Shown here piece by piece: positions 6,354 through 30,782 of a DNA stretch of 32,000 nt (its first letter is position 1; each line of letters starts with the position of its first letter). Below the pieces are notes generated by a model. It did not search any database. It had not been told where the DNA came from and saw only the letters and a list, made by a program, of their open reading frames with translations. Made by a program: the position numbers and the translations under genes. The stretch is from Candidatus Helarchaeota ASGARD archaeon Hel_GB_B (GTDB taxonomy: Archaea > Asgardarchaeota > Lokiarchaeia > Helarchaeales > HEL-GB-B): positions 31,371 to 63,370 of the forward strand of contig SUPR01000006.1 in assembly GCA_005191425.1 (NCBI GenBank), read 5' to 3'.

Positions 6354-7853
6354 TCATATTTTAGATTCCATTTTTAAAATACTTTGTTTCCATTTATTAT
6401 AATTCCATAAATTTGCCATAATTTTTGCGCCTTCAGCTGGATAAAAAACTGGAATTCCATATTCTCTTGCAAGTGTAACTCCATCATCTATAGGTCTATC
6501 ATTATATCCAGTCATTATAACGGGTATTTGATATTTTTTAATCATTCGTCTAAGGGCTCTAAAATTTTGATGATAAAGTTCACTCATTCCTGATTCCATT
6601 TCTTTTAGAGAATCACTTTTAAATAAATCATCTCCTTTTAGATGGTCAGGCATATCTTCCATTACTTTTACCCAAAAATTAGTTGAAAATATTCCATAAA
6701 ATATAATTGCATCTACTTCTCCAGATTCTAATAATGTTTTAGGTATATTTTTAAAAAAATTTGACCAATCAGTATCAAAAGTTATATCAACTGGATTTTT
6801 AGAAGAGCCAGTAACGGGTAAATATTTATTTTTAATAATTTCCTGGGTTTTTTCAGATAATAAAGGAACTTTTAACCCATATTTTTCACAAAGATCCGCA
6901 ATTAAAGTACCGGGACCACCACCAATTGTAACCACCCCAACTCGCGGTCCTTTTGGTAATGGAACAGCAGACATTGCATATAATGTATTTAACCATTCAA
7001 TTGTATTTTCAACTTGAATAATTCCTGTTTGGTGGCAGATATGTGAAAATAAATTTGAAGGCGTTGAAATTGCTGCAGTATGAGACAAGGCAGCCCTTTT
7101 ACCAGCTTCACTCTGACCGATTTCAATTGCTACAATTGGCTTCTTTAATGCCACTCGCTTTGCTACTTCTATGAATTTCTTACCTCTGCGAATACCTTCT
7201 ATATATAACCCAATAAATTTTGTTTCGGGATCGTCTTCAAGAGCTTCTAAACAGTCGGTCAAATCGGTGGTTAAACAATTCCCTACCGAAATAACTCTAG
7301 CTAATCGAAATGGAATTTGTTTAATGCCTAATAATATGTGAGCCGCAACACTCCCTGATTGACTAATTATTGAAATATTACCAGGTGGATGATAAATCGG
7401 CATGGGGGACATATAAATTTTGGATTTAGGTACAATCAATCCAATGCAGTTTGGCCCTAACATCGTAATATTATATTTTTCTACTATATTTTTGAGTTTT
7501 CTACTAATCTCATAATTTCCGATCTCATCAGCTCCCGCGGATACAACAATTACATTTTTAACTCCTTTTTTACCTATTTCTTCCATTATTTTATCAGCTA
7601 GCACTTTTATGGGTGCTACATAACACACCATATCAACTTCATCAGGTATATCTAATATTGATTTATATGCCTTAAGTCCCATTATAGTATCATATTTTGG
7701 ATGGATAGGATAGATTTTTCCCTTATATCCACCTATAATTAAATTAATAGTATTAAAACTACCGAACCTCATGAATGATTTCGAAGCGCCATAAACAGCA
7801 ATTGATTTAGGTTTAAAAAATTTCTCAAATTTTTCAAATTTTGAAATTGTCAT
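6354..7853 (-). CDS. Acyl-CoA synthetase (NDP-forming), alpha-subunit-like CoA-binding protein
   Basis: FFKPKSIAVYGAS, GPNCIG, ISQSG, phospho-His motif AALSHTAA, GGGPG and NPVD. No ATP-grasp domain. Confidence 0.88.
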   Translation of the reverse strand: MTISKFEKFEKFFKPKSIAVYGASKSFMRFGSFNTINLIIGGYKGKIYPIHPKYDTIMGLKAYKSILDIPDEVDMVCYVAPIKVLADKIMEEIGKKGVKNVIVVSAGADEIGNYEISRKLKNIVEKYNITMLGPNCIGLIVPKSKIYMSPMPIYHPPGNISIISQSGSVAAHILLGIKQIPFRLARVISVGNCLTTDLTDCLEALEDDPETKFIGLYIEGIRRGKKFIEVAKRVALKKPIVAIEIGQSEAGKRAALSHTAAISTPSNLFSHICHQTGIIQVENTIEWLNTLYAMSAVPLPKGPRVGVVTIGGGPGTLIADLCEKYGLKVPLLSEKTQEIIKNKYLPVTGSSKNPVDITFDTDWSNFFKNIPKTLLESGEVDAIIFYGIFSTNFWVKVMEDMPDHLKGDDLFKSDSLKEMESGMSELYHQNFRALRRMIKKYQIPVIMTGYNDRPIDDGVTLAREYGIPVFYPAEGAKIMANLWNYNKWKQSILKMESKI

Positions 7854-10555: not shown

Positions 10556-11713
10556 ATGTCATTAATGCCAATTAAAGTTCCAATCATTTATCATGGAAAA
10601 GGTTCGTTAAAACAATTAAAATCGATGAAACAGAAAAAAGTTTTAATTGTTACAGATAAAATCATAAGGGATATTCATGGGGATATGATTGAGAAATATC
10701 TTAAGAAGAAGGTATTTGCTTATTTTGATGAGGTTGAACCGGATCCAAAAGATAAAACGATAATTAAAGGCGGCGATTTTGCTAGAGAATTTAAGCCGGA
10801 TTTGATTTTAGGGATTGGTGGCGGATCGGTAATGGACAGTGCAAAAGCTATTTATTTTTTATATGAGCGAGAGGACAAAACATTATATGAATGTGATCCG
10901 ATATCATATTTAGGACTAGGTAAAAAGTCAAAATTAATTTTAGTTCCCACTACATCAGGTACTGGATCTGAGAATACACTAGCTGCAGTTATAACAAATA
11001 CACAAACAGGACAAAAGGTAGTAATTGCATCTCAAGAACTTCTTCCAGTCGCAATTATTTTAGACCCCAAACTTCCATTAAAAATGCCTCAAAGATTAAC
11101 AGTTTCGACAGGGGTTGATGCAATTGTCCATGCAGTTGAAGGTATTATCAATAAAATGAATAATGATTTTACTGAAGGATTAAATATACATGCACTTAAA
11201 TTACTATTCGAATATCTTCCACAAGCAGCAGGAGATGGTGCAAACGACCTAAAAGTTAGAGAGAAGGTCCATAATGCAGCATCTATTGCAGGCATTGGGT
11301 TTGGAAATTCAAATTGTGGTATTGCACATTCTTGTGGCCATGCACTGGGTGCTGTACATCATATTCAACACGGGATTGCCGTAGGTACAATGCTACCATT
11401 TGTTTTGGAATTTAATAAACTTGTTAGCGAAAAAAAATACACAGATATACTTAATAGTCTCAATATTCCTATTAATGATAGCCCAACAAATACATTGGTT
11501 AACTTTATTAGAGATTTTATCAAAAAGCTGGGGCTTCCTCTTTCGTTAAAAGAACTCGGTATTTCTCAATCGGATTGGGATCAAAATTTAGACAGATTAG
11601 TAGAATTTGCTAAAACTGATGTAGTAGCAGTCTTTAACCCAAGATCCACTTCAGAAGAAGAATTTAAAAAGATTTTTGAACATGCATGGGAAGGAAAAAA
11701 AATCGATTTCTAA
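10556..11713 (+). CDS. Iron-containing alcohol dehydrogenase
   Basis: GIGGGSVMDSAK, PTTSGTGSE, and metal ligands in DAIVH, AHSCGH and QHG. Confidence 0.93.
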   Translation: MSLMPIKVPIIYHGKGSLKQLKSMKQKKVLIVTDKIIRDIHGDMIEKYLKKKVFAYFDEVEPDPKDKTIIKGGDFAREFKPDLILGIGGGSVMDSAKAIYFLYEREDKTLYECDPISYLGLGKKSKLILVPTTSGTGSENTLAAVITNTQTGQKVVIASQELLPVAIILDPKLPLKMPQRLTVSTGVDAIVHAVEGIINKMNNDFTEGLNIHALKLLFEYLPQAAGDGANDLKVREKVHNAASIAGIGFGNSNCGIAHSCGHALGAVHHIQHGIAVGTMLPFVLEFNKLVSEKKYTDILNSLNIPINDSPTNTLVNFIRDFIKKLGLPLSLKELGISQSDWDQNLDRLVEFAKTDVVAVFNPRSTSEEEFKKIFEHAWEGKKIDF

Positions 11714-11844: not shown

Positions 11845-12438
11845 TTATAATCCAGAATAACTTAAACCTATAAATAATATATATTGAATATATGGAAACA
11901 AGAAAATTGTAATTATAACTACAATTATCCCAAGTAAAAAGCCAATAAGAACATCTGTTGGAAAATGTACACCTAAATAAACGCGACTAAAACCAATAAA
12001 TAAAGCAAGAATTATCCAAAATATAATAAACGATATTTGAAAAATACCAGAAGAATATAAAGCAAAAGAAAATAGATATTCCATAGAAAACATGGCATGT
12101 CCACTTGGAAATGATGAATTGCTCTTAGCTTTCATAATATCGCGTTTGTTAATTTTACATTTTGGATAAGGCGAGACAAATGGTCTCCTTCTTTTAAAGA
12201 AAAATTTGCTGGGAAGCTCAATGAACAGATCAATTACCATAGTTGATAAAAGAAATTGTATTAAAACGCTATTTCTAAAAAATAAAATAAATAAAATACC
12301 CCAAATTGGTAGCCAAATGATATTTGAACACAAATGAGTAAAAATTTTAATCACCCATTGTAAAAAGGACGGAATTTGTAAATTGTAAATTTTACAGATC
12401 CATTTGGCATCCCAATTTTTGATATTTTTTAAATTCAT
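11845..12438 (-). CDS. PAP2-family membrane phosphatase
   Basis: C1 KFFFKRRRP, C2 FPSGH, C3 SRVYLGVHFPTDV; several TM helices. Overlaps the tgt 3' end by 47 bp. Confidence 0.9.
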   Translation of the reverse strand: MNLKNIKNWDAKWICKIYNLQIPSFLQWVIKIFTHLCSNIIWLPIWGILFILFFRNSVLIQFLLSTMVIDLFIELPSKFFFKRRRPFVSPYPKCKINKRDIMKAKSNSSFPSGHAMFSMEYLFSFALYSSGIFQISFIIFWIILALFIGFSRVYLGVHFPTDVLIGFLLGIIVVIITIFLFPYIQYILFIGLSYSGL

Positions 12439-13570
12439 TACTTTTATTCCTAAACCATTTTTTTAAAAAGCTTTTTTTGAAATCAAGGAAAGTGCCATTC
12501 CGAATAGAATCCCGTATTTTCCTAGAAAGATCAATTATAAAATGGACATTATGTAATACCATTAATCTTTTACCAAGAGGTTCGTCCGATTTAAATAAAT
12601 GATTAATATATCCTTTGGAATAATTTTTACAAACAAAGCAATTGCAATCAATGTCAATAGGATTTTTATCTCTGGCATAACATCTTTTTGTAATTTTAAT
12701 AAGACCTTCTGATGTAAATGCACTACGATGTCTTCCAGTCCTTGTAGGATATACTGAATCATATAGGTCAATGCCGCGCGAAACAGATTCAAAAATTAAT
12801 TCAGGTGTTCCTATACCCATTAAATATCTTAAACGAGATTTTGGTAAGTTTCGATTTACAACATCTAACATTTTATAGGTAATTTCTTTGGGTTCTCCTA
12901 CACTAAGACCACCGATTGCTATACCAGGAGTTTGTAATTCAGTAGTTTTTTTTGCACTATATTCTCTTAAATCATCAAAAGTACCACCTTGAACAATCGG
13001 AAATAATATTTGTGAAGATTTTCCTTCGTGAAACTTTTTACATCGATCTGCCCATTTTAATGTCCTAAGCATTGATTTTTTCATGTATTCATAATTTTTT
13101 CCATATAAAGTACATTCGTCAAATGCCATAATAATATCTGCGCCGATTTTATGCTGAATACGCATAGACTCTTCAGGTGTCCATTTAAATATTTGATTAT
13201 TAAGCGGATTTCTAAAGGCAATGAAATCATCAGTAATTTTTTTAAAATATCTTGGTTTTTGTACCTGAAATCCACCTGAATCAGAAATAATTGGCTTACT
13301 CCAATTCATGAATTTATGAATTCCGCCATACTCTTCAATTACTTCGACTCCTGGGTTAAAAAATAGGTGTAGTGCATTGGTAATTATTATTTGTGCCCCA
13401 ATTTCTGAAATTTCTTTTGAATGTAGCATTTTAACTGCCCCTTTTGTAGCCACAGGTATAAATGCTGGAGTTTCAATTATCCCGCGATTGGTAATGATTT
13501 TTCCTAATCTGGCATCTGTTTTTTCATCATTTTTAATTATTTCAAATCTAAACAATGAATTTACCTTCAA
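12392..13570 (-). CDS. tgt: tRNA-guanine transglycosylase, bacterial (queuosine-pathway) type
   Basis: TPAFIPVAT, DSGGFQ, MAFDEC, VQGG, GGLSVGE, YLMGIG, DSVYPTR and Zn site CNCFVC...H. 392 aa with no PUA extension. Confidence 0.9.
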   Translation of the reverse strand: MKVNSLFRFEIIKNDEKTDARLGKIITNRGIIETPAFIPVATKGAVKMLHSKEISEIGAQIIITNALHLFFNPGVEVIEEYGGIHKFMNWSKPIISDSGGFQVQKPRYFKKITDDFIAFRNPLNNQIFKWTPEESMRIQHKIGADIIMAFDECTLYGKNYEYMKKSMLRTLKWADRCKKFHEGKSSQILFPIVQGGTFDDLREYSAKKTTELQTPGIAIGGLSVGEPKEITYKMLDVVNRNLPKSRLRYLMGIGTPELIFESVSRGIDLYDSVYPTRTGRHRSAFTSEGLIKITKRCYARDKNPIDIDCNCFVCKNYSKGYINHLFKSDEPLGKRLMVLHNVHFIIDLSRKIRDSIRNGTFLDFKKSFLKKWFRNKSNEFKKYQKLGCQMDL

Positions 13571-13749: not shown

Positions 13750-14934
13750 TTAAGGTTTTTTATTTGTAAATATATTGACGCAGCCAATTGCTAGTGGCCC
13801 ACCAAGGTTATGTTGTAGTCCTATTTCGGCGCCATCAACTTGTCTTTTTCTAGCTTCATTCCGAAGTTGAAACCAATTTTCACATATTTGTCCAATACCT
13901 GTTGCACCAATTGGATGGCCTTTGGCTTTTAACCCACCACTTGTATTTACTGGAAGTCGTCCACCCAAGCATACTTCACCTTCAGTTATTAATTTACCAG
14001 CTTCACCAGGTTTACAGAACCCTAAATCTTCATAATCAAGTAATTCTGTAAACGTAAAACAATCATGGACTTCCGCAAAATCTAAATCTTTAGGTTCTAT
14101 TTTAGCCATTTTATAAGCTTCTTTAGCAGCCATTACTGTTGCTAAAGCAGAGGTTAACGATTGGCGATTTGGGATCCAATAAACATCTGCAGATTGCCCA
14201 GTCCCTAATAGATAAATTGGAGAATCAGTATATTTTTTAGCTAATTCAGCTTTACAGAGTATTACCATTGCAGCGCCATCTGTTTGTGGACAACAGTCAA
14301 AAAGTCTGAAAGGATAAGATACAAGTGGAGCTGTACTCGCTTGTTCTTCGGTTATTTCAAACATAAAATGAGAATATGGACATAGAGAGCCATTATGATG
14401 ATTCTTTACAGCTACTTTAGACATATATGTCCTCAATTTTTCATCACTTGCATATTTTTTAGCCCATGCGTTAGCATACATTGCAAAATAGGAAGGAGCA
14501 ATTAGACCACGGTTTAATACTTGCTCTCTACCTGCCACATATCGGAGAAAGTTTTGTGGCTCTTTTTCTCGCATTTTTTCAGCACCTACAGCAATTGCAA
14601 CATCATATACCCCAGAAGCAACAGCAAAAGCCGCATTTCTAAAAGCATCTGAACCTGTAGCACATGCATTTTCGACTCTTGTAACTGGCTTTAATTTCAA
14701 ATATGGAAGTGCAGTTATTAGACCAGCGCCAGATAAGACATCTCGTTGAGCAGAAATTCCACCCATACATGTCCCAATCCAAGCGGCCTCGACTTCTTTT
14801 TCTATATCTATTCCTTTATCTACACTATCAATACAAGCGTTCGCTGCCATTCCTATTAGGTCGTAATAACTTTTATCAAATAATTCGCCAAATTTTATAA
14901 GTCCTGCACCAATAATAGCTACTTTACCGCGCAT
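13750..14934 (-). CDS. Thiolase (archaeal/SCP-x type acetyl-CoA acyltransferase)
   Basis: ENACATG (Cys91), DCCPQTDGAA, EVHDCF, GHPIGATG and HNLGG are all intact. Confidence 0.93.
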   Translation of the reverse strand: MRGKVAIIGAGLIKFGELFDKSYYDLIGMAANACIDSVDKGIDIEKEVEAAWIGTCMGGISAQRDVLSGAGLITALPYLKLKPVTRVENACATGSDAFRNAAFAVASGVYDVAIAVGAEKMREKEPQNFLRYVAGREQVLNRGLIAPSYFAMYANAWAKKYASDEKLRTYMSKVAVKNHHNGSLCPYSHFMFEITEEQASTAPLVSYPFRLFDCCPQTDGAAMVILCKAELAKKYTDSPIYLLGTGQSADVYWIPNRQSLTSALATVMAAKEAYKMAKIEPKDLDFAEVHDCFTFTELLDYEDLGFCKPGEAGKLITEGEVCLGGRLPVNTSGGLKAKGHPIGATGIGQICENWFQLRNEARKRQVDGAEIGLQHNLGGPLAIGCVNIFTNKKP

Positions 14935-15333
14935 TTATTTTTCCTCCTTTTTTAATGGTCTGATTTTAGGCCCATAATAATTTAGTCCATCTTTTGTTGA
15001 CATCCTTCTAATAACAATTTCAATTGGCATCCCGATTTCAATATCTTTCTCCGATTCAATTTCTGTAAATTGCGTCATCAACCTTCCACCACCGTCCATC
15101 TCTATAACACCTTGTCCTAGAGGTCTATCGAATTCATCAGGCATATAATAATTTACAATATATGTTAGAACTCGTCCAGTACGAGCAAGTTGTACCTCCT
15201 CAAGTTCTTCACTCCCGCATTCTATACATTTTAATGTTTTAGGATAATTAACTCTCTCACATCTTTTACATTTGTACCCTTTAAACTGTAAATATGCATT
15301 CTTTTGTCTCCAAACATAGGGTAAATCGGTCAA
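14935..15333 (-). CDS. DUF35-family Zn-ribbon/OB-fold protein (thiolase partner)
   Basis: CKRC..YP...CIEC rubredoxin-like ribbon, then G.V..Y and OB-fold IGMPIE.VIRR. Abuts the thiolase start with a 0-nt gap. Confidence 0.92.
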   Translation of the reverse strand: MTDLPYVWRQKNAYLQFKGYKCKRCERVNYPKTLKCIECGSEELEEVQLARTGRVLTYIVNYYMPDEFDRPLGQGVIEMDGGGRLMTQFTEIESEKDIEIGMPIEIVIRRMSTKDGLNYYGPKIRPLKKEEK

Positions 15334-15350
15334 TTTTATCTTTAACTCCT

Positions 15351-16355
15351 TTATATTTGTCCTAAAAATTGTAAATATTTTGAATAATTTACTATTATTT
15401 TATTTTCTATAAAATATTGGACAGGAGGATTACTTCTGAAGGTCTTTATATTATCTGTAACTTTTAGACTTATTGCCTGGCTTCCTCCAGAACTATAAGC
15501 AACAATTAATATTTCATCACCAGAATTAGCAGAGTCCAAGACTTTAGCAAGCCCAATAAAAACAGAGGCAGCCCCCAGGTCTCCAAAATAATTGGCAATA
15601 TTTCCTTCTTTTAGTTTGTTTTTATCAAATTTCATACTCTTCGCAATATATTCAGGAGCTTTTCCATTGGGTTGCTGTATAACTATATGTTTAAAGTCAT
15701 TTAAATCTTTATTAGTACTCTCTAAAAGCCCAAGAATAGCATTTTTAATTGAGGGGATAAACCCAAATTCCCTTGTAAATCGCTCATCGCCGACTTTATA
15801 ATCCGAATTAACGCCTTTCCAACGATCTGAAATTTCTATAGAATATGAATAATTACCAGTAATTGATGCTACTGGATTATCATTCCCAATTAAAATGGAA
15901 ATTGCTCCAGCACCAAGAGACCTTTCTAGAACTGAACCAGGTCTTGATTTTAAACAATCTGAAATTATTATTAAACCATTTGAATTTGTATTAAAGACCA
16001 TATTTTTACAATTTATTAACGCCATTGCCCCTGCTTGAGCAGACCCACCAAAATCACTTGTAAAAACATTTTCATTAAGTCCTAACATGGAAACTAATAA
16101 AGTAGATACTGGCTTGTCAATATATGGCGATGAAATACTTGCAAAATATAAAGAACCAATTGTAGTCAAGTTAAGTTCTAAATTATTTAATAGATTTAAT
16201 GCAGATGCTAACCCCATTGATATTGAATCTTCATCCTTATAAGGAACTGATTTCTCATTGATACCAGAAGCACTTAATCCCCATATTGCTCGAATTTCTT
16301 TACTTGTTATTCGATAACGGGGGATGTATATTTGATAACCAATAATTCCTGTCAT
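15351..16355 (-). CDS. HMG-CoA synthase-like (KAS III fold) protein lacking catalytic residues; PhlA-like
   Basis: Colinear with archaeal HMGS (GI.GY..YIPRYRI, EKSVP..DED, PY..KP, GAGA, QPNGK, IVNY.KY), but the Glu/Cys/His/Asn positions read I74, A106, Q227 and D259. Confidence 0.85.
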   Translation of the reverse strand: MTGIIGYQIYIPRYRITSKEIRAIWGLSASGINEKSVPYKDEDSISMGLASALNLLNNLELNLTTIGSLYFASISSPYIDKPVSTLLVSMLGLNENVFTSDFGGSAQAGAMALINCKNMVFNTNSNGLIIISDCLKSRPGSVLERSLGAGAISILIGNDNPVASITGNYSYSIEISDRWKGVNSDYKVGDERFTREFGFIPSIKNAILGLLESTNKDLNDFKHIVIQQPNGKAPEYIAKSMKFDKNKLKEGNIANYFGDLGAASVFIGLAKVLDSANSGDEILIVAYSSGGSQAISLKVTDNIKTFRSNPPVQYFIENKIIVNYSKYLQFLGQI

Positions 16356-16799: not shown

Positions 16800-18437
16800 A
16801 TGAAGTTGGGTATAAAATAGGAAATATAGAAATATTTTTAGAAAATATATAATATTGGTAGCTTTATTTTTGGGTTTATTAATGATAATATCATCATTCA
16901 TTAATATAACAAATGTTCAATTACAAGGAAAACTGGTAACAATAGAAGTAAATAATAAAAAATGGGATGCTGGAGGAGTTCCACTCTGGAATTATTTTAT
17001 TAATGCCAAAAATATTGATTTTAAAGATATTGATAAAATGTTAGATCTTGGAAATGATGCAGTCGCAGAAATCGTAGTGGGTGGGATGAATATATCTTCC
17101 AATAAAGGTATTATATTAGTTCTAAATGGCTTAACTGGGGCAGTAGTCCGGATGAAACATGTTCCACATAAAGTCTCACAAATAATTGCAGTTCAAGATT
17201 ATACTGGAGATAGTCAACAAGAAATAGTTTTTTTTGATAATAATTATGATGTACATTGCTTAAATGGTATAAATGGAAGTTATATTTGGAATTTTAAAGG
17301 AACAGCAATAATATATTATATTTCAGAAGGAGATGATGCTAATAATGGTGGATATAGGGATATATTGGTTGAGTTTGGGCCATTACATAAATTGTTCTGC
17401 TTAAATGGTCTTAGCGGCATTGAAATTTGGAATTCTACCTTTACTGATCAAGTTGTTAAAGTAAAGAAATTCCAAGATGTTAATAGCGATGGAATAAGTG
17501 AAGTAATGGTCGGTTAGGGTTTCATTAATCCAACATTTGTTAGTCATCTATATGGAAATACTGGAACTAAAATTTAGAATGTTTCTACAAAAGACCAAGT
17601 TTATGACCTTATATCAGTTCCCGATATTGATAATGATGGATATAAAGATATAATATATTTAACATCGTCTATCGATCATCGAACTGTGGGTTTAAATTCT
17701 AGAACCGGAGCTGTAAAATGGAATGTAAGTGAACTGAAACAAGGAAATTCTCTTGAATATAATATTGATAATACGTTTTTTGATTGCGCAGGAAATTTAC
17801 GAAATACTATAGATGGATCAAAAATTTCAGATGTCGGATTGTTTGTAATACCCCACCTATTGTTTCAAATTTTAAAGGATTAGTTGCATCTGGAGATAAT
17901 TGGGGCAAAATTCATGTCAGAAGTATTCACAATGGAACAAGATTTATTTACAAAAAAGTAAGCGATTATCAAATAGAGGATTTAATAGCAAACATTGATG
18001 TTAATGAAAATGGTATAGACGATTTTATCTGGTCTGATAGTGGTGGAAGAGTTTCAGTTTTAAGTGGAGGCGTTGTTGGGCCAACATTAGGTTCACCAAA
18101 AGATAAAACAATAATTCGAGGCACTACAGGTAATGAAATTAAATGGTCTGTTATTACTAAATTACATAAATCACGAACAATAACTGAAAATAGACAATCT
18201 TATAGTTCAGGAAATTTAGTGGATGATACATTGACATTAAATATTGATAATTTGGGTTTAGGTGTTCACGTAATTAATTTAACAGTTACTGATAAATATG
18301 ATCTAATGAATTATGATATTGTCATGGTTAATGTTCAAAATATGCCCATCACGGCGGCAATTCCTGGATTTGAAGTACTATACGCATTTTTAGCGATAAT
18401 GTCTTTTGGATTATTATATATTTTCTTGAAAAAATGA
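16800..18437 (+). pseudogene. Disrupted secreted FG-GAP/PQQ-like beta-propeller + Ig-like domain surface protein with IPGF-TM-KK sorting signal
   Basis: One frame runs 16855-17883 through in-frame TAGs at 17515 and 17575, then shifts near 17835-17850 into the frame of ORF 17784-18437. Repeated DxxxDGxxD/E and LNG.(T/S)G..W motifs; C-terminal IPGFEVLYAFLAIMSFGLLYIFLKK. A likely original ATG at 16800 is out of frame by 1 nt. Confidence 0.75.
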
Positions 18438-20184: not shown

Positions 20185-21591
20185 TTGAAAATAAAAGAGT
20201 ATATTGACAAATTATTTCACCCAAAATCAATTGCTATAATTGAGGCATCTACTAAAATTCCGTGGTACATTCAAGGCATTATTGAAAGAAATTTTGAGGG
20301 TAATCTATATTTGGTTTCTAAAAAAGAAGATAATATTTTTGGAATTAAATGCTTTAAAGATATTTCAAAAATACCTGACAAAATAGACCTCGCAATAATA
20401 GCTGTTAATCGAAATAAACTGATTGACGTAATAAAAAAATGTATAGAAAAACAATTTTTTAATTTACACATATTTTCAGCTGGACTTGGAGAATATGATG
20501 AGAAAGGTATTGAAATTGAAAATGAAATTTACAATTTATTGAAAAATAGTAATACAAAAGCCATAGGACCGAATTGCATGGGAATTTATTCCACTGAAGG
20601 TAGACTCTCTTATAGCCCATATTTTTCAAAAGAAGAATGCAAAAAAAGATGCGTTTCATTTGTATCTCATTCCGGAGATTTAACTACACGATATGTTATC
20701 CGGACTAATGACTATGGGGTAAATTTTCATAATGTTGCTAGTATAGGAAATTCTATTAGCTTAAAGTTTTCCGATTTTATTTCTTATTTTAGCGAAATCG
20801 ATAGGGCAGATATAATTGCCGGTTATTTCGAGGGTTTTTCTCGGTTCAATGAATTGGAGGGTAAAATATTAATTGATATACTTAAAAAAAATAAAAAACC
20901 AATATTATTATTAAAAGGAGGGACCACATCCGATGGTAAAAGAGCTGTATCATCTCATACTGGGACAATTGCATCGAATTCTAACTTATGGAATTGTATT
21001 TTTAAGCAATCAAATGCCATTAAAATAGAAACATATGAAGAACTCATCGATTCTACGATTGCTTTTTATTTTTGTAAAGAATATTACCCAACTGTAAAAA
21101 GTCTTCTTATAATTACTTGGAGCGGCGGTAAAGCTGTATTGGGAGTTGATCGGACTATAAATCTGGGAATAAAGGTACCAGAAATCCAAGAACCGACTAA
21201 AACAAAAATGAAATCCATGATCTCAATTGGGAGTATTTCAAACCCTCTTGACCTACCTTGGATTGGAAGATCTGAAAAATTTTCTGAAATATGTAAGTTA
21301 GCTATTAGCGAGCCCTATATTGGTGGAGTAATTTTCGAAACATATGCACCCCGTCAATTTGATGAGAGATATGAAATCTATTTTCAAAATATTCTAAAAA
21401 TATTCAATCATTGTAAAAATTATAAAAAACCATTTTTAATGTCTTTACCCTTTGCAAATATAAAACAACGAGAAAAATTAAAAGAGAAATTTATTAAATA
21501 TTCTATACCAATTTTCCCAAGTATAGAACGAGCCGCAAAAGCATTTTTAAATCTTTATTATTTTAAACATCATCAAAATAATGTAATTTAA
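20185..21591 (+). CDS. Second acyl-CoA synthetase (NDP-forming) alpha-like CoA-binding protein
   Basis: LFHPKSIAII, IGPNCMG, VSHSG, AVSSHTG (phospho-His), NPLD. No ATP-grasp domain. Confidence 0.85.
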   Translation: MKIKEYIDKLFHPKSIAIIEASTKIPWYIQGIIERNFEGNLYLVSKKEDNIFGIKCFKDISKIPDKIDLAIIAVNRNKLIDVIKKCIEKQFFNLHIFSAGLGEYDEKGIEIENEIYNLLKNSNTKAIGPNCMGIYSTEGRLSYSPYFSKEECKKRCVSFVSHSGDLTTRYVIRTNDYGVNFHNVASIGNSISLKFSDFISYFSEIDRADIIAGYFEGFSRFNELEGKILIDILKKNKKPILLLKGGTTSDGKRAVSSHTGTIASNSNLWNCIFKQSNAIKIETYEELIDSTIAFYFCKEYYPTVKSLLIITWSGGKAVLGVDRTINLGIKVPEIQEPTKTKMKSMISIGSISNPLDLPWIGRSEKFSEICKLAISEPYIGGVIFETYAPRQFDERYEIYFQNILKIFNHCKNYKKPFLMSLPFANIKQREKLKEKFIKYSIPIFPSIERAAKAFLNLYYFKHHQNNVI

Positions 21592-22011
21592 AATTTTTAC
21601 GTCTTGTAATAACAATTTTTAAGATAGATTACCCATTTTGAAGCCTAAATTCACTTCAATTACAAATTTATTTTTGTGATATTACTCTAAATATTATAAA
21701 TTTATTAAATAAAAATCATAAAAAGTAAAATATATAGTTATTTAAATAATATATATGATTTTATATGATTTCTTTATTTTAAAATAAATTGAGATAATTA
21801 AAAATTAAAATAATGAAAGCAACGGAAATTAAAAAAACTCAAATATAATTAAATTATAAATTATTTCGTTCTTAGTTTTTCTTAATTCCATTGCAAAATA
21901 TCTATGTGAATAGTAAATGATTTAAATAGAATTTTCTAATTTTTTAAAAAATTTCTATAAAATTTTGTGAATCAGATATTTAGACGCAAATTTAAAATAA
22001 TAGTGATTTTA

Positions 22012-23358
22012 ATGAACGAAGAAATCAAACTTGTAGTGGCACAAGCTAGAAGTCGGGACGATAATCGAAATATAGTTAGAGTTAATGAGGATACTATGAA
22101 TAGTATAGAGATATATACAGGAGACATAATAGAAATTTCAGGAAATAGGACAACATGCTGCGTTGCATGGCCAGCATATCCGGAAGACCAAGAAAAAAAA
22201 ATTATTAGATTAAATAAATGGACTATGACTAATGCTAAGGTAGAAGTGGGAAAAAAAGTGTCTATCAGGAAAGCATTTACAAAAAATGCCAATACAGTTG
22301 TTCTTGAGCCCATAAATATGAAACTAAAGGAAGACAATTATCTGGAAAGATTTATCCAAAGTAAATTGATAAATTATCCAATAATTGAAGGAGATATTGT
22401 TTTAGTTACTATTGGACTGAATAAAGAAATTATTTTTAGAGTAAAAAAGACTTTACCAAAAGGTATTCTTGTAATTTCTACCAATACAAATATAAATATT
22501 ATAAATAAAAAACAATTATATTTGAATTCGGATGATGACCTAAATAATTATGAAAATCTCGGAGGATTAAATGATAAAATTCGAGAATTACGAGAAATCA
22601 TTGAAATACCAATTAATCACCCCGAGATCTATGACTATCTAAATATTAGAAAATTCAAAGGAATTTTATTATATGGCCCATCTGGGTGTGGTAAAACATC
22701 TTTAATAAAATCAATAGTAGATCAAACGGCAGTTAATTTTATTTCGCTCAATTTTTTAGATATTTTTGGTAAATATGCCGAGGAATTTGAAAAAAAGTTA
22801 ATAGATATTTTTAGAGAGGCTGTAAATAACCAACCAACTATAATTCATATCCCAAATATTGATTTACTTGCTCCGAATAATCCTAATAATATATTAGTCC
22901 CTGAAAAAAGGGTCATTTCCTTAATTCTCGAATTAATAGATAAAATTGATCCAAAATATACTATATTTTTAATTGGTGAAACTAATGATATTAATGCAGT
23001 AAATCCCTCACTATTACAGCCTGGAAAATTTGATATCTTGATAAATATAGACAGACCAGACGAAAAAAAGAGACTTGAAATTTTAAAAAATTTGACTAAA
23101 AATGAATTTTTATATGATAAAATTGACTTTCATGAATTAGCAAGAATGACGGAAGGTTTTACTGGTGCATCACTTAAACTCATGATTGATAATGCAAAAT
23201 TAAATGCAATTAAACGTAATTTCTCAAATATCTTGGACATTCAAGAAGAAATATCCTTAGACCGACTCAATGGACTTAAAATTATAAGTGATGATTTTAA
23301 TATATCTCTTAAAAAAATTAAAGAATTGATGGCACTCAATAATTCCACTGAAAAATAA
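22012..23358 (+). CDS. CDC48/VCP-like protein, N-domain plus a single degenerate AAA domain
   Basis: N-domain LVVAQA..RD..R.IVR; linker YENLGGL..KIRELREIIEIPINHPE; Walker A GPSGCGKT; degenerate Walker B IIHIPN. ATG at 22012 has a GTGAT RBS (the track starts at GTG 21967). Confidence 0.88.
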   Translation: MNEEIKLVVAQARSRDDNRNIVRVNEDTMNSIEIYTGDIIEISGNRTTCCVAWPAYPEDQEKKIIRLNKWTMTNAKVEVGKKVSIRKAFTKNANTVVLEPINMKLKEDNYLERFIQSKLINYPIIEGDIVLVTIGLNKEIIFRVKKTLPKGILVISTNTNINIINKKQLYLNSDDDLNNYENLGGLNDKIRELREIIEIPINHPEIYDYLNIRKFKGILLYGPSGCGKTSLIKSIVDQTAVNFISLNFLDIFGKYAEEFEKKLIDIFREAVNNQPTIIHIPNIDLLAPNNPNNILVPEKRVISLILELIDKIDPKYTIFLIGETNDINAVNPSLLQPGKFDILINIDRPDEKKRLEILKNLTKNEFLYDKIDFHELARMTEGFTGASLKLMIDNAKLNAIKRNFSNILDIQEEISLDRLNGLKIISDDFNISLKKIKELMALNNSTEK

Positions 23359-29129: not shown

Positions 29130-29786
29130 ATGGTTATTAAAAAAGGAAAAACTTATGATTATAAGATTTATGTATGTGGGTATTTTCAAGCAGGGAAAAC
29201 TACTTTAATTCATTCTCTGGATCCAAACGCTATGTCAATAGAAAAAAAGTTACGGGAATTATATTATGGAAAAGAATCTTCAACAACAGTTGGATTTGAT
29301 TTAGGACATCTTGTTTGGGCACGACCAAGAGAAAATACAGATGGTATTTTAATGAGTTGGTTTGAATTTGAAAAAGAACGTGATGAATATAAAGATTGGA
29401 TCTGTAAACTTATTGAATTAAAGGGTAGTCCTGGACAATTACATTTTAAAGATATGCGAAATATTGTAAGTAAAGGAAGTGATGGCATATTGTTTGTAAT
29501 TGATAGTTCAGATCCTGGATCAATAGGATATGCTTTAACATTAATTGAAGAATCTCGTTGTTTTTTAGGCAAATCTATTCCACTAGTTGTGTTAGCAAAT
29601 AAACAAGACCTAGAAATTGCTCTCCCCCCTGAAAAAGTTTCAGACCTCATAAAATTTGAAACATTCGGAGGATCAGCAAAAAATAATTTTGGAGTAAAAG
29701 AAGCTCTTATTCGATTATTAAGAATAATAGTAAAAGAAATTAAACAAGATTATCAAAACTATTTAATAAAAGAGGAGATTCAATGA
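29130..29786 (+). CDS. Small GTPase, MglA/CvnD-like
   Basis: G1 GYFQAGKT, switch I STTVGFDLG, G3 GSPGQ (no DxxG Asp, as in the MglA family), G4 NKQD, G5 SAK. Confidence 0.92.
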   Translation: MVIKKGKTYDYKIYVCGYFQAGKTTLIHSLDPNAMSIEKKLRELYYGKESSTTVGFDLGHLVWARPRENTDGILMSWFEFEKERDEYKDWICKLIELKGSPGQLHFKDMRNIVSKGSDGILFVIDSSDPGSIGYALTLIEESRCFLGKSIPLVVLANKQDLEIALPPEKVSDLIKFETFGGSAKNNFGVKEALIRLLRIIVKEIKQDYQNYLIKEEIQ

Positions 29787-30223
29787 TATCTGAAAAACCT
29801 TTACAAAAATTTTTAAATGAATTAAAAATAAATAGTGGTATTTCAAGGTCAATTCTAATAACAGAAGATGGACTTTTAATAACCAGAGATGATGAAAATA
29901 GTAATTCAAATGATCTTATGCAAAATATGGAAATTGGAGCAATTACAGCCGGCATATTATCAATGTCAGAACGATTAGTCGATCTTCTCACTAAACAAAA
30001 ATTAAATCAAATTTTAATTAAAACAGAACTTGATAGTGAAGAAAATGGGTTAACAACTATTATTACCTTGGTCTATAATAATATAATTTTGTTAGTTTTT
30101 TTTCCATCTAAATTAAATGTTGGTCTGATATTATTTGAAATAGAGGAAACTAAACAAAAAATATCTGATTATTTAAAGAATCAAAAAGGAGATTTTATAT
30201 TAAATCCAGAGAGTGTATTATAA
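29783..30223 (+). CDS. Roadblock/LC7 protein 2
   Basis: SILITEDGLLI...IGAITAGILSMSERL..LL..QKLNQILIK...LNVGLILFEI. ATGA overlap with the GTPase stop indicates translational coupling. Confidence 0.88.
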   Translation: MISEKPLQKFLNELKINSGISRSILITEDGLLITRDDENSNSNDLMQNMEIGAITAGILSMSERLVDLLTKQKLNQILIKTELDSEENGLTTIITLVYNNIILLVFFPSKLNVGLILFEIEETKQKISDYLKNQKGDFILNPESVL

Positions 30224-30224
30224 A

Positions 30225-30782
30225 ATGATGAAGAATCACAAAAAGTTTAATTCTAAATTTAATAAATACAATTCAAATGAAAATCGACATATCGCTCTAA
30301 CAAAAATATTATCAGAATTGGGTAATAAGGAAAATATATCTGCTTGCCTAATAATTGATGAGAACGGATTATTAGTATCAGAGTTTATTAATGATTCAAT
30401 AAATAAAGACATACTTACAGTATTTTCATCATCACTAAATATTAATTTGAATAAATTTAAAGGTAATCTTAATTTAGCAGACATTAATTTTTTAATGTTA
30501 AATACAAAAAATGGAATAATATTTTTGAAAGAAATTCCACTTAAAAAGCATAAAAGAAGATTTTTATTGAGTATATTTTTCAAAAAAAGCAATAATAATT
30601 TCGAAAAAAGTAATATAAAATCACTGAAAATTCATTATAGATTTTTGGAATATCTATATAAATTGTTTAGATTAGAATATATTTTCAAAGATCATTATTT
30701 TAATGGAACATATCTTAATAATAAGATATTAAAAGAAATAGAAAATGTAATTTTTAAAATTCAATTTATTTTCAATCAATAA
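30225..30782 (+). CDS. Divergent Roadblock-like protein 3 with a long insertion
   Basis: LTKILSEL...ISACLIIDENGLLVSE...L.L.DINFLMLNTKNG.IF roadblock core. ATG lies 1 nt after the Roadblock 2 stop (the track starts at GTG 30213). Confidence 0.7.
   Translation: MMKNHKKFNSKFNKYNSNENRHIALTKILSELGNKENISACLIIDENGLLVSEFINDSINKDILTVFSSSLNINLNKFKGNLNLADINFLMLNTKNGIIFLKEIPLKKHKRRFLLSIFFKKSNNNFEKSNIKSLKIHYRFLEYLYKLFRLEYIFKDHYFNGTYLNNKILKEIENVIFKIQFIFNQ

Follow-up and report, generated by a model that had tools for sequence, protein, structure and literature searches.

A conserved Asgard archaeal operon of a thiolase, a DUF35 protein and a catalytic-tetrad-less HMG-CoA synthase-like protein, with a single predicted active site

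The operon described here lies in a window of 32,000 nucleotides, the whole stretch of DNA that was analyzed, from the Asgard archaeon Candidatus Helarchaeota Hel_GB_B (contig SUPR01000006.1, positions 31,371 to 63,370), and carries genes for a 3-hydroxy-3-methylglutaryl-CoA (HMG-CoA) synthase (HMGS)-like protein, a DUF35 protein and a thiolase. The HMGS-like protein has lost all four residues of the catalytic Glu-Cys-His-Asn tetrad while the thiolase keeps its active-site motifs, and the three products probably form a complex with a single working active site, that of the thiolase. Three adjoining open reading frames (ORFs) on the minus strand fill positions 13750-16355 exactly; the DUF35 gene starts 17 nucleotides past the end of the HMGS-like gene and the thiolase ATG follows immediately after the DUF35 stop. 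Pfam and NCBIfam profiles support all three folds.

15351..16355, minus strand: HMGS-like subunit P0001, 334 amino acids, without the Glu-Cys-His-Asn tetrad; predicted non-catalytic partner
14935..15333, minus strand: DUF35 protein P0002, 132 amino acids, with a rubredoxin-like zinc ribbon and an oligonucleotide/oligosaccharide-binding fold; predicted clamp between thiolase and HMGS-like dimers
13750..14934, minus strand: thiolase P0003 of the SCP-x/archaeal-ACAT type, 394 amino acids; predicted sole catalytic subunit

The window has a G+C content of ∼26%, and the nearest relatives of P0001 carry Helarchaeota or Lokiarchaeota names in public records.

Residues 3-334 of P0001 align by HMMER to the HMGS of M. 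thermolithotrophicus (6ESQ_I) with an E value of 1.8e-52. Where the latter reads GSES, EFACKAG, FHQPNGK and GNTYS, P0001 reads ASIS, GGSAQAG, IQQPNGK and GDLGA, placing I74, A106, Q227 and D259 at the positions of the catalytic Glu, Cys, His and Asn. An earlier note, made from the letters of this DNA, had reported these four replacements in a full-length, uninterrupted ORF, and the alignment bears it out. The tetrad of the M. thermolithotrophicus enzyme is E82/C114/H238/N270, and a quadruple mutant of these residues abolishes HMG-CoA formation (Liao et al., PMC12960953). The replacements extend beyond the tetrad: catalytic HMGSs conserve 49 columns to at least 90%, and of these the window clade keeps 21 and replaces 28, and the HMGS-conserved residues F104, H189, Y261 and D293 are also lost in P0001. 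Because all four tetrad residues and more than half of these conserved columns are replaced, the alignment supports the view that P0001 cannot be a canonical HMG-CoA synthase, which agrees with the claim in the earlier note that the protein has no such role.

The fold, on the other hand, is predicted with confidence. An AlphaFold2 model of P0001 reached a mean predicted local distance difference test (pLDDT) score of 96.1 and a predicted template modeling (TM) score of 0.94, and its best structural matches were archaeal HMGS (6ET9_I, TM score of 0.95), PhlA (0.94) and MucA (0.90-0.91), which are exactly the three relatives that form complexes.

Eight orthologs of P0001, with 49-67% identity, retain [I/T/V][A/S]QD at the tetrad positions, and the order HMGS-like, DUF35, thiolase is preserved in G001, a genome of the same genus as the source genome (G000, 3.5 Mb), and in G003, G004, G005 and G006, which belong to the same order. 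Between G000 and G001, the HMGS-like protein is 65% identical, DUF35 84.5% and the thiolase 92.6%, and the nonsynonymous rate (dN) is 0.257 for the HMGS-like gene versus 0.056 for the thiolase gene, a 4.6-fold faster evolution. The ratio of nonsynonymous to synonymous rates (omega) is at most about 0.19 for the HMGS-like gene, with a synonymous rate (dS) of at least 1.39, and ∼0.02 for the thiolase; omega is given as an upper bound since dS is saturated, from 1.4 to over 2.5, with errors in more distant pairs. The loss of every catalytic residue in the least conserved of the three genes might suggest a decaying pseudogene that has yet to gain stop codons. We regard this as extremely unlikely, since at least eight lineages, with identities as low as 49%, have a full-length gene with the same substitutions, and since the low omega and the confident fold model both speak against decay. 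Moreover, the intact HMGS described below is itself 73% identical between G000 and G001, so that the HMGS-like copy is only slightly less conserved and evolves only moderately faster. As the orthologs keep both substitutions and gene order, we read the HMGS-like gene as a conserved pseudoenzyme under purifying selection, and P0001 would be a clean case of a pseudoenzyme subunit maintained in this way. Orthologs with at least 49% identity are limited to 2 of 60 related species genomes and a handful of metagenomic proteins, while some tetrad-less copy occurs in 45 of the 61 genomes of the class that were searched, G000 included.

The two partner proteins show no comparable loss. P0003 matches PF22691 and PF00108 and keeps C91, HDCF (H290-F293) and GHP (G339-P341), and P0002, matching PF12172 and PF01796, keeps the zinc-ribbon cysteines C22-x2-C25 and C36-x2-C39, all as the earlier note had described. 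The best solved relative of P0003 is the thiolase of the M. thermolithotrophicus complex (6ESQ_A, E value of 7.3e-70), followed by BbsB (7PXP_C, 5.5e-46) and PhlC (1.3e-27), with bit scores of 239 against archaeal ACAT and 100 against PhlC. Likewise, P0002 is closest to the DUF35 chain of the same archaeal complex (6ESQ_E, 3.4e-15) and more distant from PhlB (1.1e-6). Its motifs and nearest relatives mark the catalytic subunit as a PfACAT/BbsB/archaeal-ACAT-type thiolase that depends on CoA.

To place P0001 within its family, we searched two very large protein libraries and gathered 217 relatives, of which only about 20 have E-C-H-N at the tetrad positions; the remainder lack the tetrad and come both unfused (about 340 amino acids) and fused to DUF35 (about 480 amino acids). 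Maximum likelihood (ML) trees of the kind that the earlier note had proposed, with HMGS, PhlA and fusion proteins, place P0001 among the tetrad-less proteins. The window clade has a support of 100/100 and is nested in a tetrad-less clade whose members are fused or unfused and come from bacteria as well as archaea. The tetrad-less grouping was supported at 98 in the Shimodaira-Hasegawa-like approximate likelihood ratio test (72 rows), and under LG+C20 at 100/99 with 40 rows and at 96/93 with 47 rows including PhlA-like sequences. In 80% of bootstrap trees a single branch sets the catalytic HMGSs apart, and the PhlA-like (CGQD) proteins form a separate clade of their own. The window clade also carries consensus residues of the other tetrad-less proteins, namely A72, S105, D/E80, S141, D259 and G261, which may be read as shared derived characters. 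A single ancient loss of the tetrad is favored by the trees, if short of proof in view of the topology test given below.

The earlier note had pointed to the rest of the genome as the place where a separate, intact HMGS might be found, and there is one, on another contig. A search of G000 with the profile NF003274 gave four HMGS-fold genes, three of them without the tetrad, including P0001. The other three are as follows.

C105 (HMGS-like gene at C105:13774-14802): triad in the order thiolase, HMGS-like, DUF35; tetrad positions VEQD
C93: triad of an HMGS-like::DUF35 fusion followed by a thiolase; tetrad positions TTYN
C95: intact HMGS of 545 amino acids; Glu, Cys, His and Asn kept (GTET, NACAA, FHAP and GNMYS)

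The C95 gene lies immediately upstream of genes for a mevalonate-pathway decarboxylase, a class-II HMG-CoA reductase and mevalonate kinase (C95:11000-22000; L016:1459-6591). Its product has a conserved C-terminal CxxC...CxxH tail (zinc knuckle) and orthologs with 73% identity in G001 and 66% in G032. A lysine at the His column of this protein in the large alignment was a misalignment, and a dedicated alignment gave FHAP. Because an intact HMGS sits in the mevalonate operon on C95, the window operon is predicted not to be the entry to the mevalonate pathway, a role that the C95 enzyme would fill.

The genome holds further candidates for thiolase chemistry. Seven DUF35 genes occur with seven SCP-x-type thiolases (C150, C105, C93, C96, C121, C139 and C169), so that besides the three tetrad-less triads there are four further DUF35/thiolase pairs, and four classical thiolases score over the TIGR01930 cut-off (C153, C180, C109 and C83). 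Related genomes give a similar picture. In G004-G006 we found a different intact E-C-H-N HMGS, extended at its N terminus by about 160 amino acids (L048, L049 and L052), while the type-A, type-B and type-C copies of these genomes are all tetrad-less. The idea that relatives without a C95-type HMGS rely on the dead copies was therefore rejected for G004, G005 and G006. With the queries used, G003 (94% complete) and G002 (82% complete) yielded no intact E-C-H-N HMGS.

These results bear on annotation. NF003274 is described as an HMG-CoA synthase 'equivalog' with a cut-off of 244 bits, and this is passed by the tetrad-less P0001 (292) and C105 copy (268), whereas the genuine C95 HMGS scores 188; against TIGR00748, P0001 scores 214 bits, under the cut-off of 353. 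Because they pass the NF003274 cut-off, P0001, its C105 paralog and the orthologs of P0001 are named 'hydroxymethylglutaryl-CoA synthase' in public records, and by the tetrad criterion the cut-off mis-names such genes in Asgard genomes. Counting them in reconstructions of Asgard isoprenoid and lipid metabolism will mis-assign the mevalonate entry step. Next to its genuine HMGS, this single archaeal genome of 3.5 Mb holds three tetrad-less triads, each arranged differently.

The closest known system to the window operon is PfACAT/HMGS-DUF35 of P. fluorescens. It belongs with about 1,000 'minimal' bacterial loci (Liao et al., Nat Commun 2026, PMC12960953), in which the HMGS has no tetrad but the thiolase retains Cys, HDxF and GHx. 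The P. fluorescens complex cleaves acetoacetyl-CoA, makes neither HMG-CoA nor acetoacetyl-CoA, and depends on the His of the HDxF motif (Liao et al., PMC12960953). Like the window operon, it has lost E-C-H-N, keeps the thiolase Cys, HDxF and GHx, and has no secondary-metabolism neighbors. The ML trees group P0001 and the HMGS-like::DUF35 fusions in one broad tetrad-less clade. The P. fluorescens complex differs in that the window system has an Asgard host and is known from its genes alone, and P0001 is closer in sequence to real archaeal HMGS. Liao and colleagues mined bacteria only, and archaeal complexes were taken as mevalonate enzymes (PMC12960953). For each of the three window subunits, the best solved relative is a chain of the M. 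thermolithotrophicus mevalonate complex, which shares the thiolase motifs and the DUF35 zinc ribbon; this complex keeps E82/C114/H238/N270, however, where P0001 has I/A/Q/D and its genome provides for the mevalonate role elsewhere. Complexes of HMGS, ACAT and DUF35 in which only the thiolase works are thus known in kind, having been first assayed in a bacterium in 2026 (PMC12960953), and the window would be an archaeal example. In the literature searched, we found no report of tetrad-less thiolase/DUF35/HMGS-like triads in Asgard or other archaea.

The same three folds are also found in two Friedel-Crafts acylases, PhlACB (PpATase, PDB 5M3K/5MG5) and MucABC (SmaATase, PDB 9VBO), in which the HMGS-like subunit is non-catalytic, with His-to-Gln and Asn-to-Asp replacements, and the only active Cys is on the thiolase-fold subunit. 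PhlA (5M3K_A) reads C/G/Q/D at the tetrad positions in our HMMER output; the two replacements agree with the earlier note and are also stated by Liao et al. (PMC12960953). These parallels, together with the close structural match of the P0001 model to PhlA and MucA, would fit a C-acyltransferase of this type, with the thiolase Cys acylated and the acyl group passed to a phenolic or other non-CoA acceptor. The thiolase, however, makes such chemistry quite unlikely. The HDxF motif is lost in the Friedel-Crafts enzymes PhlC and MucB (Liao et al., PMC12960953), and in place of the HDCF of all six aligned Asgard thiolases, the PhlC of two genomes has YDLL. Six PhlC residues, H56, Y124, T132, D137, H144 and W211, correspond to C, F, E, a gap, A and Q in P0003, which shares only C88 and E116 among eight PhlC active-site residues. 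The bit scores given above favor archaeal ACAT over PhlC, all three subunits are nearer to the archaeal mevalonate complex than to PhlABC, and the PhlA-like sequences stand in their separate clade. PhlACB and MucABC lie within polyketide synthase (PKS)/non-ribosomal peptide synthetase (NRPS) clusters, phlD following phlACB in Pseudomonas loci, while a Pfam scan of the ORFs of the 32-kb window found no PKS, NRPS or other secondary-metabolism gene. From the earlier proposal of a PhlABC-like acyltransferase, we therefore keep the architecture and drop the chemistry, and nothing in our analysis speaks for the bulky substrate suggested with it.

Two further systems pair an HDxF-type thiolase with DUF35 for CoA-dependent C-C cleavage or formation, as would the window operon, but have no HMGS-like third subunit: the benzoylsuccinyl-CoA thiolase BbsAB (PDB 7PXP) and the ketothiolase/DUF35 fatty-acid-synthase assembly of S. 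acidocaldarius (Schmerling et al., bioRxiv 2024). A reductase and a dehydratase are recruited by DUF35 in Sulfolobus; the window operon has a gene for neither. Several ketothiolase/DUF35 pairs in one genome are typical of Asgard archaea, with an average of 3.8 (Schmerling et al., bioRxiv 2024); G000 has seven.

By analogy with the solved (A2C2)2B4 dodecamers, we propose a mechanism for a complex of thiolase, DUF35 and HMGS-like subunits. C91 of P0003 would act as the acyl-accepting nucleophile, aided by the His and Cys of HDCF and by the GHP motif. The reaction would be the CoA-dependent thiolysis of a short 3-oxoacyl-CoA, for which acetoacetyl-CoA is our default guess; alternatively, given pull from a downstream enzyme, P0003 might catalyze the reverse Claisen condensation. 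P0002 would clamp thiolase dimers onto HMGS-like dimers. P0001 would be chemically inert and retained to complete the shared CoA chamber and to keep the thiolase folded and soluble. We infer this scaffold role because in the PhlABC complex only PhlC residues contact the substrate, with PhlA and PhlB required for the dodecamer, (A2C2)2B4, to fold (Pavkov-Keller et al., PMC6392133). The earlier suggestion that the HMGS fold is a scaffold fits these data and those from P. fluorescens, and in the window operon it is carried over by analogy.

Several points weigh against a complex with the thiolase as its only working site. Its formation is deduced here from gene order and homology, and the biochemistry of thiolase-only complexes comes so far from the bacterial P. 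fluorescens example alone, which is a fusion, whereas the window genes are separate (the fused paralog is on C93). Outside the three genes, no neighbors are shared among G000, G001, G003 and G005, and substrate and direction can therefore not be read from context. The wide conservation of Q227 and D259 in tetrad-less relatives could reflect residual ligand binding or some other role. Finally, the approximately unbiased (AU) test leaves a grouping of the window clade with the catalytic HMGSs unrejected (delta lnL of 7.9, p of 0.435), which is compatible with an independent, later loss of the tetrad from a true mevalonate module.

Such a loss could have left a vestigial module, in which the thiolase supplies acetoacetyl-CoA to the C95 HMGS and the displaced archaeal HMGS survives as an obligate structural subunit. 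The kinship of all three subunits with the M. thermolithotrophicus complex and the tree permitted by the AU test are consistent with this, as is the fact that P0001 represents the tetrad-less lineage most like real HMGS, passing the NF003274 cut-off and keeping QPNGK; the zinc-knuckle tail that the C95 HMGS has of its own would fit as well. We nevertheless consider it unlikely. The derived residues and the tree position of P0001 are shared with a broad tetrad-less clade that includes bacteria, the operon is distant from the mevalonate genes, and the genome has no need of this thiolase, given its three triads of this kind and its four classical thiolases. In addition, the condensation is unfavorable without channeling to an HMGS site, and the P. 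fluorescens complex gave no acetoacetyl-CoA (PMC12960953).

The conserved pocket residues raise another alternative, that P0001 has been neofunctionalized and has a different catalytic or regulatory activity through its Q227/D259/S105 pocket, for example binding of an effector or acyl-CoA, or decarboxylase- or hydrolase-type chemistry. Gln and Asp recur at the His and Asn positions across much of the tetrad-less clade (D in 59%, with G261 in 94% and S105 in 83%), which is more order than pure decay predicts. This explanation is highly doubtful all the same, as neither nucleophile nor general base remains, dN is 4.6 times that of the thiolase, and all the chemistry measured in PhlABC and the P. 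fluorescens complex maps to the thiolase (PMC12960953, PMC6392133).

The single-site complex that we prefer leaves room for a more specific, if improbable, function: the dead-synthase triads of this Asgard order, the window operon among them, would be modules dedicated to condensation or acyl handling in a fatty-acyl pathway of archaea, their HMGS-like subunit determining specificity for chain length or acceptor, and would not be housekeeping ketothiolases. Were this so, it would matter for fatty-acid lipids in the archaea related to eukaryotes. A hint in this direction is a gene for an LpxL/HtrB-like 'lipid A biosynthesis acyltransferase' that adjoins the type-A triad of G003 (L037:3281-4759), the ortholog of the window operon. 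An LpxL/HtrB-like gene also adjoins the type-B triad in G000 (L014:1351-2520, C105). In G000 such genes occur on C105 only, in two copies, and the association with triads amounts to these two cases.

The remainder of the window contains the following features.

6354-7853, minus strand, and 20185-21591, plus strand: ADP-forming acyl-CoA synthetase genes (CoA_binding_2/Succ_CoA_lig) flanking the region
10556-11713: Fe-alcohol dehydrogenase
12392-13570, minus strand: queuosine-type (bacterial/eukaryal) tRNA-guanine transglycosylase (tgt), 180 bp downstream of the thiolase gene
16855-17517, plus strand, and 17784-18437, plus strand: two ORFs without a Pfam match, divergent from the operon, with repeat-like beta-rich sequence
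21967-23358: CDC48-like AAA ATPase, an Asgard hallmark
29130-30782, plus strand: small Arf/Ras-like GTPase followed by two Roadblock/LC7 genes, a typical Asgard 'eukaryotic signature' cluster

The acyl-CoA synthetases and the Fe-alcohol dehydrogenase could make up a local theme of acyl-CoA turnover, one that is unconserved in relatives. PAP2 and short-chain dehydrogenase/reductase genes are also among the neighbors. Queuosine-type transglycosylases are unusual in archaea. The window enzyme scores 441 bits against TIGR00430 (cut-off 307) and 150 bits against archaeosine TgtA, and a normal archaeosine TgtA (484 bits) is also present in G000, on contig C111. The two ORFs without a Pfam match may be parts of one split surface protein; the C terminus of the second has a PGF motif, a hydrophobic stretch and a KK tail, and resembles a PGF-CTERM archaeosortase signal.

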